Shown here piece by piece: positions 59,782 through 64,000 of a DNA stretch of 64,000 nucleotides. Origin of the DNA: Candidatus Eiseniibacteriota bacterium (lineage in GTDB: Bacteria > Eisenbacteria > RBG-16-71-46). Each line of letters opens with the position of its first letter. The first letter of the stretch is position 1. The notes under the pieces were generated by a model, which made no database searches, was not told the origin of the DNA, and saw nothing but the letters and a program-made list of their open reading frames with translations. The translations under genes were made by a program, and so were the position numbers. Location: NCBI GenBank assembly GCA_031364505.1, contig JANLWK010000242.1, forward strand, positions 7,775 to 71,774, written 5' to 3'.

Positions 59782-61016
59782 GTGTCACCCTGTGGGTGGC
59801 CTCGCGCTACATGCGTGCCCGGCCGCGGAGCGCCTTCGTCACGCTGCTCAGCGCCATCTCGGTCGGGGGCGTGGCGCTGGGCGTGACGGCGCTCGTCACG
59901 GTGCTCGCCGTGATGAACGGGTTCGAGAACGAGGTCCAGTCGCGTATCGCCGGCACCGACGCCCACGTCGTCATCCTGGGCTCGAACGCCTCGGGGGTCG
60001 CCGACGCCGGTGACCTGGTGCGGCGGATCCGGCGGGATCCCGACGTCGTCGGCGTGGCGCCGTTCACCTACGTCAAGGCGATGGCGTTCCGCGAGGGCTT
60101 CACCGAGGGGCTCATCGTCAAGGGCGTCGACCTGGCGGCCGAGCGTGGCGTCACGACCATCGGCAACAACTTCACGCCGCCGCTCGACTCGATCCCGCTG
60201 CGCACCACCGGCGGGCGGCCGGGGCTCGTGCTCGGCTCCGAGCTGGCCGACCGGCTCGGGGCGAGGGTCGGCGACGAAGTACTGCTCGCCACGCTGACGG
60301 GCGACCCGGGGTCGGCCCTCGGCTTCGCGCCCCGGCTCAAGCCGTTCCGGCTCGTGGGCGTGTTCCGCTCGGGCCTCTACACGTACGATTCCAGTCTCGG
60401 CTTCACGTCGATTCCCGCGGCCCAGCAGTTCTTCGAACTCGGCACCTCGGTGACCGGCATCGAGGTGCGACTGCGCGACATGTTCCAGGCGCCGCAGGTC
60501 GGCGAGCGCATCCTGTCCGGGCTCGGCGTGCCGGGCCTGCGCGCCAACAACTGGATCGAGCTCAACCGGAACCTGTTCACCTGGATGCGGCTCGAGAAGG
60601 CCGTGATGTTCGTGATCCTCGCGCTCATCGTGCTCGTCGCGGCGTTCAACATCGTGAGCACGCTGTTCATGGTCGTGCTCGAGAAGCGCCGCGACATCGG
60701 CGTGCTCAAGTCGCTGGGCGCCACCGACGGCCAGGTGCTGCGCGTGTTCCTCTACCAGGGCCTCCTGATCGGCGCCGCGGGGACCGGCCTGGGCGTGTTG
60801 CTCGGCGGCACGCTGATCGCGATACTCCGGCGCTACCCGTTCGTACGGCTGCCGGGGGACGTCTACTTCATCGAGCGCCTGCCGGTGCGGCCGGAGTTAT
60901 CGGACTTCGCCGCCGTAATTCTTGCCGCCCTCGCCCTGTGTCTGGTCGCCGCCCTCTACCCGGCGTGGCGGGCCTCGCGACTCGATCCGGTGGACGCGAT
61001 CCGCCGGCAGGCATGA
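59778..61016 (+). CDS. lolE: lipoprotein-releasing system permease (LolC/LolE, FtsX family)
   Basis: GTG overlaps the lysS stop. 4 TM helices, large periplasmic loop, FtsX C-terminal helices (VLKSLGATDGQVLRVFLYQG). Confidence 0.85.
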   Translation: MSVTLWVASRYMRARPRSAFVTLLSAISVGGVALGVTALVTVLAVMNGFENEVQSRIAGTDAHVVILGSNASGVADAGDLVRRIRRDPDVVGVAPFTYVKAMAFREGFTEGLIVKGVDLAAERGVTTIGNNFTPPLDSIPLRTTGGRPGLVLGSELADRLGARVGDEVLLATLTGDPGSALGFAPRLKPFRLVGVFRSGLYTYDSSLGFTSIPAAQQFFELGTSVTGIEVRLRDMFQAPQVGERILSGLGVPGLRANNWIELNRNLFTWMRLEKAVMFVILALIVLVAAFNIVSTLFMVVLEKRRDIGVLKSLGATDGQVLRVFLYQGLLIGAAGTGLGVLLGGTLIAILRRYPFVRLPGDVYFIERLPVRPELSDFAAVILAALALCLVAALYPAWRASRLDPVDAIRRQA

Positions 61017-61759
61017 AGCGGAACGCGAAGATGGCCGATTTAACCATTGGAAACAGTACGGTTGCCGAGCACGGGCCGGCGCTGGAGGCCACCGGGATCC
61101 GGAAGTCCTACCCGACTCCGGAGGGGCCACTCGAAGTCCTGCGAGGGGTCGATCTGACGGTCGATCGTGGCACGATCCTCGCGATCGTGGGGGCCTCGGG
61201 ATCGGGGAAGAGCACGCTGCTCAACATCCTCGGCACCCTGGACCACGCCGACGCCGGCGTGGTTCGCGTGGGAGGGCGGCCGGTGTCGGCGCTCAAGCCG
61301 CGCGAGCTGGCGGAGTTCCGTTCGCGGCGGCTGGGGTTCGTGTTCCAGTTTCACCACCTGCTGCCCGAGTTCACGGCCGAGGAGAACGTGATGATGCCGC
61401 TCGTGCTGGCCGGAGTCGCGAGTGCCTCGGCGCGGGATCGCGCGCGCGCGGCCCTCGATTCGGTGGGCCTCGTCGAGCGCCGCCAGCACCGTCCGGCGGA
61501 GCTGTCGGGCGGCGAGGCGCAGCGCGTCGCGGTCGCGCGGGCGCTGGTCGCGTCGCCGCAACTCGTGCTCGCGGACGAGCCTTCGGGGAACCTGGATCCA
61601 CGCGCGGCCGAGGCGCTTCACGACCTCATGTCATCATTGGCCCGCGACCGGCATCAAACGTTCATCGTCGTGACACACAATGATAGACTCGCGAGCCGAG
61701 CCGACCGGGTCCTGACGCTGGACGACGGTCGCCTGAGCCCCGCGTCCACGAGAGGCTGA
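61013..61759 (+). CDS. lolD: lipoprotein-releasing system ATP-binding protein
   Basis: Walker A GASGSGKST, signature LSGGEAQRVAVARAL, Walker B LVLADEPSGNLD. ATGA overlap with lolE (alternative ATG 61031). Confidence 0.88.
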   Translation: MKRNAKMADLTIGNSTVAEHGPALEATGIRKSYPTPEGPLEVLRGVDLTVDRGTILAIVGASGSGKSTLLNILGTLDHADAGVVRVGGRPVSALKPRELAEFRSRRLGFVFQFHHLLPEFTAEENVMMPLVLAGVASASARDRARAALDSVGLVERRQHRPAELSGGEAQRVAVARALVASPQLVLADEPSGNLDPRAAEALHDLMSSLARDRHQTFIVVTHNDRLASRADRVLTLDDGRLSPASTRG

Positions 61760-61762
61760 CGC

Positions 61763-62293: not shown

Positions 62294-63387
62294 CGCCGGC
62301 CGACGATCGCCCCACCGCCGGAGTCGACCGGCTGCTCGACGGCACGAGCCCGTGGCTGTCGGGCGACGGCCCGCACGCCGACCTGGTGCTGTCGACGCGC
62401 ATCCGCCTCGCGCGCAACCTGAGCGAGGTGCCGTTCACGCACGTCGCGCGCGACGAGCAGCTCCAGGGCGTGCTCGCGAGTGCCACGAGCGCCGCGCAGC
62501 GCGCGGGGTCGTTCGAGGGGGCGCTGCTGCTCCGGATGAACGAGCTCGCGGCGGGCGAGCGGCAGATGCTCGTCGAGCGCCACCTGGTGAGTCACGAGCT
62601 CGGCGACGGCGTGCGGCCGCGTGGCATCCTCGTCGCGCAGGGCGAACGGCTGTCGCTGATGATCAACGAAGAGGACCACCTGAGGCTCCAGTCCATGGCG
62701 CCGGGGCTCCAGCTCGCCGAGGCGTGGGCGACGGCCGACACGGCCGACGACGAGCTCGACCAGTCGCTCGACTTCGCCTTCTCGGACGAGATCGGCTACC
62801 TGACCGCCTGCCCCACGAACGCCGGCACGGGGCTGCGCGCCTCCGTGCTCATCCACCTGCCGGCGCTGGTGCTGCTCGACGAGATCCAGAAGGTTCTGAA
62901 GGGCGTCATGCAGGTGGGCTTAAGCGTGCGCGGCCTGTACGGCGAGCACAGCGAGGTGATGGGCAACCTGTTCCAGATCTCGAACCAGACGACCCTCGGC
63001 CGCAGCGAGCGCGATTCGATCGAGAGCCTCGAGCGCGTGACGCGCCAGATCATGGAGGCCGAGGAGCGGGCGCGCGAACGGATGATGCGCGACGCGCGCG
63101 TCCAGATCGAGGACAAGGTGTGGCGCGCTTACGGGACGCTGCGGCACTGCCGGTCGATTCACGCCCGCGAGGTGATCAACCTGTGCTCGGCGGTGCGGCT
63201 CGGCGTGGCGCTCGGCCTGCCGGGGCTGTGCCCGCTGAGCACCGTGAACGAGCTGCTCGTGCTGACGCAGCCCGCGCATCTGCAGCGGTTCGCGGGCAGC
63301 GAGCTGTCACCCGCCGAACGTAACGTCATTCGTGCCCAACTCGTGCGCGAGCGGCTCACCGCCGCCGAGCGCGCCTCGGGCGTGTAG
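62290..63387 (+). CDS. mcsB: protein arginine kinase McsB (ATP:guanido phosphotransferase family)
   Basis: Phosphagen-kinase active site CPTNAGTGLRAS, RNLSEVPF, C-terminal pArg-binding-like domain. GTG overlaps the mcsA stop. Confidence 0.88.
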   Translation: MTPADDRPTAGVDRLLDGTSPWLSGDGPHADLVLSTRIRLARNLSEVPFTHVARDEQLQGVLASATSAAQRAGSFEGALLLRMNELAAGERQMLVERHLVSHELGDGVRPRGILVAQGERLSLMINEEDHLRLQSMAPGLQLAEAWATADTADDELDQSLDFAFSDEIGYLTACPTNAGTGLRASVLIHLPALVLLDEIQKVLKGVMQVGLSVRGLYGEHSEVMGNLFQISNQTTLGRSERDSIESLERVTRQIMEAEERARERMMRDARVQIEDKVWRAYGTLRHCRSIHAREVINLCSAVRLGVALGLPGLCPLSTVNELLVLTQPAHLQRFAGSELSPAERNVIRAQLVRERLTAAERASGV

Positions 63388-63420
63388 CTTCTTTCGAGTC
63401 ACGAGACCAGGAGCCTTGTC

Positions 63421-64000
63421 ATGCACGATAAATTCACAGAACGAGTCCGCAAGGTCATCTACCTCGCGCGCGAGGAAGCGGCGCGCCTCCAGCACGACTA
63501 CATCGGGACCGAGCACCTGCTGCTCGGCGTGATCCGCGAGGGCGAGGGCATCGCCGCGACGGTGCTCAATAATCTCGGGCTGGATCTCGAGCGCATCCGG
63601 CAGGAAGTCGAGAACATGGTGAGCGCGGCGGGCGGCACGATGACGATCGGCGAGATCCCGTTCACGCCGCGCGCCAAGCGCGTGCTCGAGCTGGCCGTCG
63701 AGGAAGCACGGTCGCTCGGCCACAACTACGTCGGCACCGAGCACCTGCTGCTCGGACTGATCCGCGAGGGCGAGGGCGTCGCCGCGAAGGTGCTGCTGGA
63801 GCTGGGCGTGGACCGCAAGCGCGTGCGCGAGGAAACCCTGAAGCTGCTCGGCGGCACACCGTCGGCCTCGGCCTCGACCGAGCGCGAGGAGCGCCCCGAG
63901 ACGCCGGCGCTGAACCAGTTCGGCCGCGATCTCACCCAGCTCGCCCGCGAGGGCAAGCTCGACCCGGTGATCGGGCGCGAGAAGGAGATCGAGCGCGTCG
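63421..64000 (+). CDS. clpC: ATP-dependent Clp protease ATP-binding subunit ClpC (N-terminal part; 3' end outside window)
   Basis: Tandem Clp-N repeats (HDYIGTEHLLLGVIREGEGIAATVL / HNYVGTEHLLLGLIREGEGVAAKVL), ...LDPVIGREKEIERV. AGGAG 8 nt upstream of ATG 63421. Follows mcsB as in Firmicute ctsR-mcsA-mcsB-clpC. Confidence 0.9.
   Translation, partial: MHDKFTERVRKVIYLAREEAARLQHDYIGTEHLLLGVIREGEGIAATVLNNLGLDLERIRQEVENMVSAAGGTMTIGEIPFTPRAKRVLELAVEEARSLGHNYVGTEHLLLGLIREGEGVAAKVLLELGVDRKRVREETLKLLGGTPSASASTEREERPETPALNQFGRDLTQLAREGKLDPVIGREKEIERV

Follow-up and report, generated by a model that had tools for sequence, protein, structure and literature searches.

A probable mcsA-mcsB-clpC protein-arginine phosphorylation module without a local ctsR in a lysS-lol gene string of an Eisenbacteria genome

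A stretch of 64,000 nucleotides from a Candidatus Eiseniibacteriota bacterium (contig JANLWK010000242.1; hereafter, the window) ends with the genes mcsA and mcsB and the beginning of clpC, which are placed directly behind a lysS-lolCE-lolD gene run and are not accompanied by the CtsR repressor gene. Judging from domain content and conserved residues, the McsA-McsB-ClpC set is probably orthologous to its better known counterparts and functional. The reading favoured here, to which we assign a probability of roughly 70%, is that the genes encode a canonical phospho-arginine (pArg)-ClpC(P) quality-control system and share a transcript with housekeeping genes in a gene string of ancient origin. 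As far as gene order in relatives can tell, the locus is a segment of a very old string common to many outer-membrane-bearing phyla and no recent fusion.

The run lies on the + strand, as do nearly all genes of the window, and is tightly packed. It is headed by an open reading frame (ORF) for lysyl-tRNA synthetase (lysS, 58249-59781), whose TGA overlaps the GTG start of a lolC/E-like ABC permease gene (59778-61016) in a GTGA tetranucleotide. The gene for a lolD-like ABC ATPase follows (61013-61759), overlapping the lolE TGA in an ATGA. After a 3-nt gap behind the lolD stop comes mcsA (61763-62293), with AGAGG 8 nt upstream, and mcsB (62290-63387) begins with a GTG in a 4-nt GTGA overlap with the mcsA TGA, so that every junction from lysS through mcsB is either a 4-nt overlap or a 3-nt gap. 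A spacer of 33 nt (63388-63420) carrying an AGGAG ribosome-binding site leads to the 5' part of clpC (63421-64000), the ORF of which runs past the end of the window. The order mcsA-mcsB-clpC, including the mcsA/mcsB overlap, is that of the class III heat-shock operon ctsR-mcsA-mcsB-clpC of Bacillus subtilis and Geobacillus, from which the window differs in having no ctsR gene or operator and in having lolD in the upstream slot, preceded by lysS-lolCE. A first-pass annotation of this DNA, made from the sequence alone, had been correct in its coordinates and junctions, and had rightly pointed out that mcsAB abuts lolD with no room for ctsR or its operator. To this can be added the overlap between lysS and lolE, which is of the same 4-nt type and places the start of the compact unit at lysS or farther upstream. 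Given these overlaps and minimal gaps, mcsA and mcsB are most likely carried on the lysS-lolCE-lolD message.

With regard to McsB, the window protein reaches 412.1 bits on the NCBIfam model NF002194 (protein arginine kinase), above the equivalog cutoff of 385, and 393.5 bits on the Bacillus-specific model NF053707, which is under the cutoff of 500 for that model. Its residues 16-357 align with the B. subtilis and Geobacillus McsB structures (PDB 8WTB, 6TV6 and 6FH1; E 5e-96 to ~1e-95) at about 50% identity, the alignment running through the C-terminal domain. The NEEDH motif (residues 126-130) and the catalytic cysteine, Cys174 within CPTNAGTGLRAS, are shared with Bacillus and are invariant across 84 aligned McsB sequences; in B. 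subtilis McsB the catalytic cysteine is C167 (PMC11046695).

A free-arginine (phosphagen) kinase paralogue, instead of a protein kinase, would have the same catalytic fold, as ATP-gua_Ptrans is common to the window McsB and to arginine and creatine kinases, and it is the sole Pfam domain found in the window protein (residues 76-260). Such a paralogue is nevertheless extremely improbable. The N-terminal guanidino-substrate domain of the phosphagen kinases is missing in both Pfam and PDB alignments, those to arginine and creatine kinases starting at about residue 110 of these enzymes. Moreover, McsB structures give a score of 325 bits and arginine kinases one of only about 98 bits; all close homologues carry PF27454, the McsB-specific C-terminal domain, the alignment of the window protein to 8WTB reaching residue 357; and the gene has mcsA directly before it and clpC directly after it. 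The first-pass annotation had called the protein McsB while considering that it might be a creatine/arginine kinase paralogue. The C-terminal domain and the missing N-terminal domain exclude the latter, and the score on the NCBIfam model, the structural alignments and the catalytic residues identify a genuine McsB.

Among the metagenomic McsB proteins, six of 440-556 aa (P0155, P0168, P0217, P0216, P0251 and P0175) have an N-terminal extension ahead of the kinase domain, which in three of them is a McsA-like UVR region. This suggests either McsA-McsB fusions or gene calls that read through the 4-nt overlap.

The two partner proteins are equally recognisable, in agreement with the identities proposed in the first-pass annotation for mcsA (zinc fingers and UVR) and clpC. 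Over its whole length, McsA aligns with its B. subtilis counterpart (PDB 8WTB_B; E 7e-38), with which it shares two aligned Cys4 zinc motifs (C3/C6/C29/C32 and C73/C76/C91/C94) and a UVR domain, or coiled coil, at residues 131-164 (Pfam UVR). The ClpC fragment encoded in the window comprises the first 193 residues, with two Clp_N repeats (Pfam), GTEH in each of them as in Bacillus, and the start of the first AAA+ module. Its best PDB matches are Mycobacterium tuberculosis ClpC1 and B. subtilis ClpC (E 1e-60 to 1e-62, the N-domain structure 5HBN included), and no ClpB or ClpA cutoff of NCBIfam is reached. The GTEH repeats are presumably pArg-binding (E32 and E106 in B. subtilis ClpC), the residues being those reportedly described by Trentini et al. 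in 2016. As the same GTEH residues are found in ClpC from phyla that lack McsB, they are no proof of pArg use. Full-length ClpC orthologues in relatives have 820-828 aa, and those of four loci (L001, L003, L004 and L007; 822-825 aa) have both AAA+ modules and an LGF tripeptide aligned to the ClpP-docking VGF671 of Bacillus ClpC. As for ClpP itself, a tblastn search with E. coli ClpP as query detected no such gene, either in the window or in the loci fetched. The clpC ORF of an Omnitrophota locus (L018:9063-12551) is longer, with 1163 aa against about 820 aa elsewhere, which could be a real C-terminal extension or an artefact of ORF extension.

The claim that no CtsR is present locally was borne out by two kinds of search. 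A CtsR hidden Markov model (HMM) built from six ORFs directly upstream of mcsA in Bacillota loci recovered an ORF in 24 of 24 Bacillota-type loci (E 1e-46 to 1e-78), and gave no match in any locus outside the Bacillota or in a six-frame translation of the window (best E > 1). The CtsR operator pattern, a tandem heptad of the form A/GGTCAAA N A N A/GGTCAAA, has a single match with three mismatches in the window, at position 40076, far from the cluster; this is at chance level, as 23 of 100 shuffles yield at least one match. In particular, neither a CtsR box (pattern search) nor a sigma-70-like promoter (E. coli-type consensus) was found near the 3' end of lolD, where the first-pass annotation had considered that they could lie. 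CtsR tracks the phylum and not the envelope type, as the only diderm Firmicute in the sample, a Halanaerobiaceae locus (L047), already has ctsR.

A cluster that lacks CtsR could still be under its own stress control, with a promoter located inside the cluster, towards the 3' end of lolD or of mcsB, that answers to a regulator other than CtsR, such as an RpoH-like sigma factor or a repressor, and with heat-shock induction as in Firmicutes. This is possible, though on the unlikely side. The gap between mcsB and clpC in relatives is 23-243 nt, roomier than the other junctions, and a sigma-54 activator gene at 43514-44560 shows that the genome does have control by an alternative sigma factor. Against it, the searches for a sigma-70-like promoter (none in 55000-64000), a CtsR box and a CIRCE element (none in the window, by pattern search) were all without a match, albeit the promoter scan is uninformative, using an E. 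coli-type consensus that may not be that of the phylum. Furthermore, the 33-nt spacer holds little beyond the ribosome-binding site and its sequence is not conserved among relatives, one of which tolerates an insertion there. This insertion was seen on comparing two loci with identical McsB (L001:11107-11338 and L002:11107-11141). It is 197 bp long, sits exactly at the mcsB stop codon, ends in perfect terminal inverted repeats (GCCTGGACTATTCATGA ... TCATGAATAGTCCAGGC) and, on account of these repeats, looks like a miniature transposable element. A hairpin at the end of mcsB (63369-63385) was also considered as a terminator and rejected, since it is no more stable than shuffled sequences (z -0.23).

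The favoured reading, that of a quality-control system embedded in an ancient housekeeping string, draws on the comparison of gene order. A scan of one genome per GTDB species gave a set of 80 loci, which were annotated by tblastn, and upstream genes were counted in those with sufficient flanking sequence. The gene directly 5' of mcsA is lolD in Eisenbacteria (8/8), Gemmatimonadota (21/22), Ignavibacteria (2/2), Fibrobacteres (1/1), a metagenome-assembled genome (MAG) labelled 'Binatia' (1/1) and six of nine unclassified MAGs. This is the case in none of the 20 Bacillota, ten Planctomycetota or two Omnitrophota loci, albeit in five of the Planctomycetota and both of the Omnitrophota a single gene is inserted between lolD and mcsA. 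It encodes a class IV aminotransferase of about 290 aa (L018:6565-7434, L029:6606-7475, L046:4500-5372, L050:6647-7519, L054:6495-7373 and L087:6639-7508). Two Zixibacteria-type contigs have the same lysS-lolCE-lolD-mcsA-mcsB-clpC backbone; lysS lies 5' of lolCE in nearly all lol-linked loci, and lolD and mcsA of relatives are mostly 5-35 nt apart. In the window itself, a homologue of the aminotransferase with 35% identity is encoded at 19731-20726, some 41 kb upstream of mcsA.

Downstream of clpC the string varies by phylum. In four Eisenbacteria contigs it reads purB-purL-purQ-x-purF-lysS-lolCE-lolD-mcsA-mcsB-clpC-bamA-skp-lpxD-lpxC/fabZ-lpxA-x-lpxB, with the lpxA-lpxB continuation seen in L001-L004, the lysS products of which have the domains tRNA_anti-codon and tRNA-synt_2. 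The segment bamA-skp-lpxD-lpxC/fabZ follows clpC in 7/7 Eisenbacteria and 17/17 Gemmatimonadota. A gene for a 1375-aa TamB-like protein takes this place in Zixibacteria, and mlaE-mlaF-mlaD in five PVC (Planctomycetota/Omnitrophota) loci, where the string continues with radA-yacL-ispD-ispF-gltX-cysS. Bacillota loci have radA-disA-yacL-ispD-ispF-gltX after clpC, and YacL of Omnitrophota is 42% identical to that of Bacillus (E 1e-69). Hence, the PVC order is lolCD-...-mcsAB-clpC-mlaEFD-radA-yacL-ispDF-gltX and the Bacillus order ctsR-mcsAB-clpC-radA-disA-yacL-ispDF-gltX, that is, removing lolCD and mlaEFD from the PVC order and adding ctsR and disA gives the Bacillota order. Being like Eisenbacteria upstream (lysS-lolCD) and like Bacillus downstream, the PVC loci bridge both arrangements. 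Seen in this way, the Bacillota string ctsR-mcsA-mcsB-clpC-radA-... looks like a version of the shared string that lacks the envelope genes and has acquired ctsR, insofar as gene order can indicate the direction of change.

In B. subtilis, Listeria and Staphylococcus aureus, lysS presumably lies just upstream of ctsR across a ribosomal RNA (rRNA) operon. No lysS fragment was found 5' of ctsR within the fetched Bacillota flanks, and the papers found give no gene order. Two Paenibacillus genomes (L080:443-5439 and L084:1106-6343) carry a complete 16S-23S-5S rRNA operon directly 5' of ctsR, and many other Bacillota contigs end 0.1-2 kb upstream of ctsR, as expected with an rRNA operon there.

The relationships of McsB itself follow the phyla. 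The window McsB is 76-91% identical to Eisenbacteria homologues, 47-53% to those of Gemmatimonadota and 42-48% to those of Bacillota. Its closest homologues (78-91% identity) are metagenomic; those with a name belong to Candidatus Eisenbacteria, since renamed Candidatus Eiseniibacteriota, and already bear the annotation protein arginine kinase; among ten distant representatives, the only taxon name obtained was candidate division WOR-3. In a neighbour-joining tree with 60 bootstrap replicates, Gemmatimonadota and the Eisenbacteria core that includes the window copy were each recovered in 60/60, Eisenbacteria plus Gemmatimonadota in 50/60 and the ctsR-bearing Bacillota in 46/60, with the window copy not nested in the Bacillota. 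Taken together, the synteny across phyla, the restriction of CtsR to Bacillota loci and the phylum-like tree indicate that the arrangement is long-standing and usual in these phyla, with CtsR as an apparent addition of the Bacillota. Two elements of the first-pass annotation thus have to be given up. The module is not Firmicute-type by descent, since its McsB groups with Eisenbacteria and Gemmatimonadota and apart from the Bacillota clade. Nor was it newly fused onto the lol operon, the same order being found in Eisenbacteria, Gemmatimonadota, Zixibacteria, Fibrobacteres and Ignavibacteria.

These data also bear on a recent acquisition of the module from a Firmicute by horizontal transfer, with a chance landing behind lolD. 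The system was discovered in Gram-positive bacteria and is generally regarded as theirs (PMC11046695, PMC8370763), and horizontal acquisition has been suggested for Chlamydia (PMC10128030). For the window, this scenario appears highly improbable: the identities given above are lowest to Bacillota, which form a clade of their own in the tree, and for at least six phyla to share one insertion point, the same event would have had to occur independently many times over. In addition, the base composition gives no sign of a foreign origin. The window has 72% G+C, its real genes are recognisable by a G+C content at third codon positions (GC3) above 0.9, and mcsA, with a GC3 of 0.92, is similar to its neighbours.

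An organism with an outer membrane had been proposed as the host in the first-pass annotation, and this is confirmed by RseP, an Omp85 protein, TamB and the apolipoprotein N-acyltransferase Lnt, all encoded in the window. The first three form a second envelope-gene block (397-7880), made up of RseP (M50 and PDZ domains), the Omp85/TamA-like protein and a TamB of 1378 aa; lnt is located at 45660-47249 and fits the Lol pathway. At the locus itself there is only one Lol permease gene, of the single LolCE/'LolF' type, with the Pfam domains MacB_PCD and FtsX.

In this context, the module might, as the first-pass annotation had suggested in place of heat-shock control, be functionally coupled to outer-membrane biogenesis through co-expression with LolCD, BamA/Skp/Lpx, TamB or Mla, so that pArg tagging and ClpC(P) would clear un-exported precursors of lipoproteins or outer-membrane proteins, or would adjust how much of an envelope enzyme, for instance LpxC, is present. 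The position of lolD directly 5' of mcsA in Eisenbacteria, Gemmatimonadota, Ignavibacteria, Fibrobacteres and Zixibacteria, the presence after clpC of further envelope genes, in different sets by phylum, and junctions that point to translational coupling speak in favour of this idea, and monoderm-type Bacillota loci are without exactly these envelope neighbours. We consider it plausible, but unlikely all the same. The string also holds lysS, the class IV aminotransferase gene, radA, yacL, ispD/F and gltX, which are unrelated, so that long-term adjacency here does not imply shared function. Furthermore, the module is kept in Bacillota without any outer membrane, the chlamydial mcsAB is unlinked from clpC and flanked by tRNA genes (PMC10128030), in a second lineage of Planctomycetota McsAB the genes occur on their own (L036, L049, L053 and L088), and the literature searched yields no link of mcsB with lolD or bamA, nor of clpC with bamA or lpxD.

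This second McsA-McsB lineage (L036, L049, L053, L066, L081 and L088; mostly Planctomycetota) has no lolD or clpC neighbours, and clpC is found 3' of mcsB everywhere except in its stand-alone loci (L036, L049, L053, L066 and L088). In L088, two consecutive genes for UVR-domain (McsA-like) proteins lie ahead of mcsB, with Ser/Thr kinase genes all around.

A bolder version would make pArg-directed ClpC proteolysis an integral, co-expressed part of envelope biogenesis in outer-membrane-bearing phyla, with the corollary that the Bacillota string ctsR-mcsAB-clpC-radA-ispDF-gltX is the same ancestral string after the loss of its envelope genes, a synteny scar of the diderm-to-monoderm transition. 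It would explain why the module stays wedged between lolCD and bamA/skp/lpx, tamB or mla, and is in our view doubtful.

According to the favoured reading of a canonical quality-control system on a housekeeping message, McsA would activate the McsB kinase, by homology to the Bacillus proteins, and McsB would phosphorylate arginines on client proteins. The N-domain of ClpC would read the phospho-arginine mark, and ClpC would then thread the client into a ClpP encoded elsewhere than at this locus. Translation of mcsA and mcsB from the same message as lysS-lolCE-lolD would make their expression basal and growth-linked, and not gated by CtsR, with any stress control exerted through another regulator. 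That pArg-ClpC logic works outside Firmicutes is indicated by Chlamydia trachomatis, the ClpC-ClpP1P2 of which degrades casein in vitro only if the latter is arginine-phosphorylated (PMC10128030). Chlamydia, too, is of the Gram-negative cell type, and has McsA, McsB and ClpC but lacks CtsR. In contrast to the separate chlamydial genes, the three genes in the window are contiguous, within the lysS-lolCD...bamA string.

Several observations weigh against a simple transfer of the Bacillus model to this locus. The pArg receptor site of B. subtilis McsB is formed by R337, D338, R341 and S285 (PMC8370763). Its two arginines are kept in the window McsB as R344 and R348, but the other two of the four residues are changed (D338 to N345 and S285 to A292), and the arginine of the Bacillus octamer latch, R194, is a lysine (K201). 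In the 84-sequence alignment, the R194 equivalent is an arginine in 21 of 24 Bacillota sequences and a lysine in most other phyla, and the R337 equivalent is lost in Gemmatimonadota. Since R194 is absent and two residues of the receptor site are altered, the control of kinase activity, self-regulation included, may depart from the octamer model of Bacillus and may be lineage-specific. Moreover, McsA scores 177.9 bits on NF053706, below the cutoff of 210 for this model, which was built on Bacillus-type sequences and is matched over positions 1-177 of 182. The Lol proteins, too, fall short of their curated NCBIfam cutoffs: the permease has its best match in TIGR02212 lolCE (340.6 bits, cutoff 362.45) and the ATPase in TIGR02211 LolD (262.2 bits, cutoff 307.75). 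An internal promoter inside lolD or mcsB is possible, the consensus used in the scan being of the E. coli type, and the recurrence of envelope genes next to the module in several phyla could stem from a real functional coupling, where the favoured reading sees only history.

Elsewhere in the window, about 0.8 kb lie between purF and lysS (57436-58248), with an ORF for a predicted membrane protein, and the same interval measures only about 110-125 nt in the Eisenbacteria relatives L001-L004. A gene for a MoxR-type AAA+ ATPase followed by two for VWA-domain proteins forms a BatA/BatB-like cluster at 23847-29551.

The window proteins are ordinary members of known families, and their relatives in Gemmatimonadota, Zixibacteria, Ignavibacteria, Fibrobacteres, Omnitrophota and Planctomycetota are already auto-annotated. 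The literature searched was not found to describe the CtsR-less operon architecture tied to lysS-lolCD, its conservation across these six phyla and Eisenbacteria, or the collinearity with Bacillus. In that literature, the protein arginine phosphorylation degradation tag is treated as a Gram-positive trait governed by CtsR. Orthologous McsA-McsB-ClpC sets are instead standard equipment in several outer-membrane-bearing phyla, where CtsR was never found with the non-Bacillota sets examined and where the module keeps its position, with lipoprotein-sorting genes on one side and other envelope genes on the other. This raises testable questions as to how the system is controlled without CtsR and whether envelope precursors or enzymes are among its clients, for which cultured carriers from Gemmatimonadota, Ignavibacteria and Planctomycetota could be used. 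Additionally, the collinearity between PVC loci and Bacillus may serve as a gene-order marker in the debate on the diderm ancestry of monoderm Firmicutes. For the single window the message is more modest, namely that its locus is normal for its phylum.

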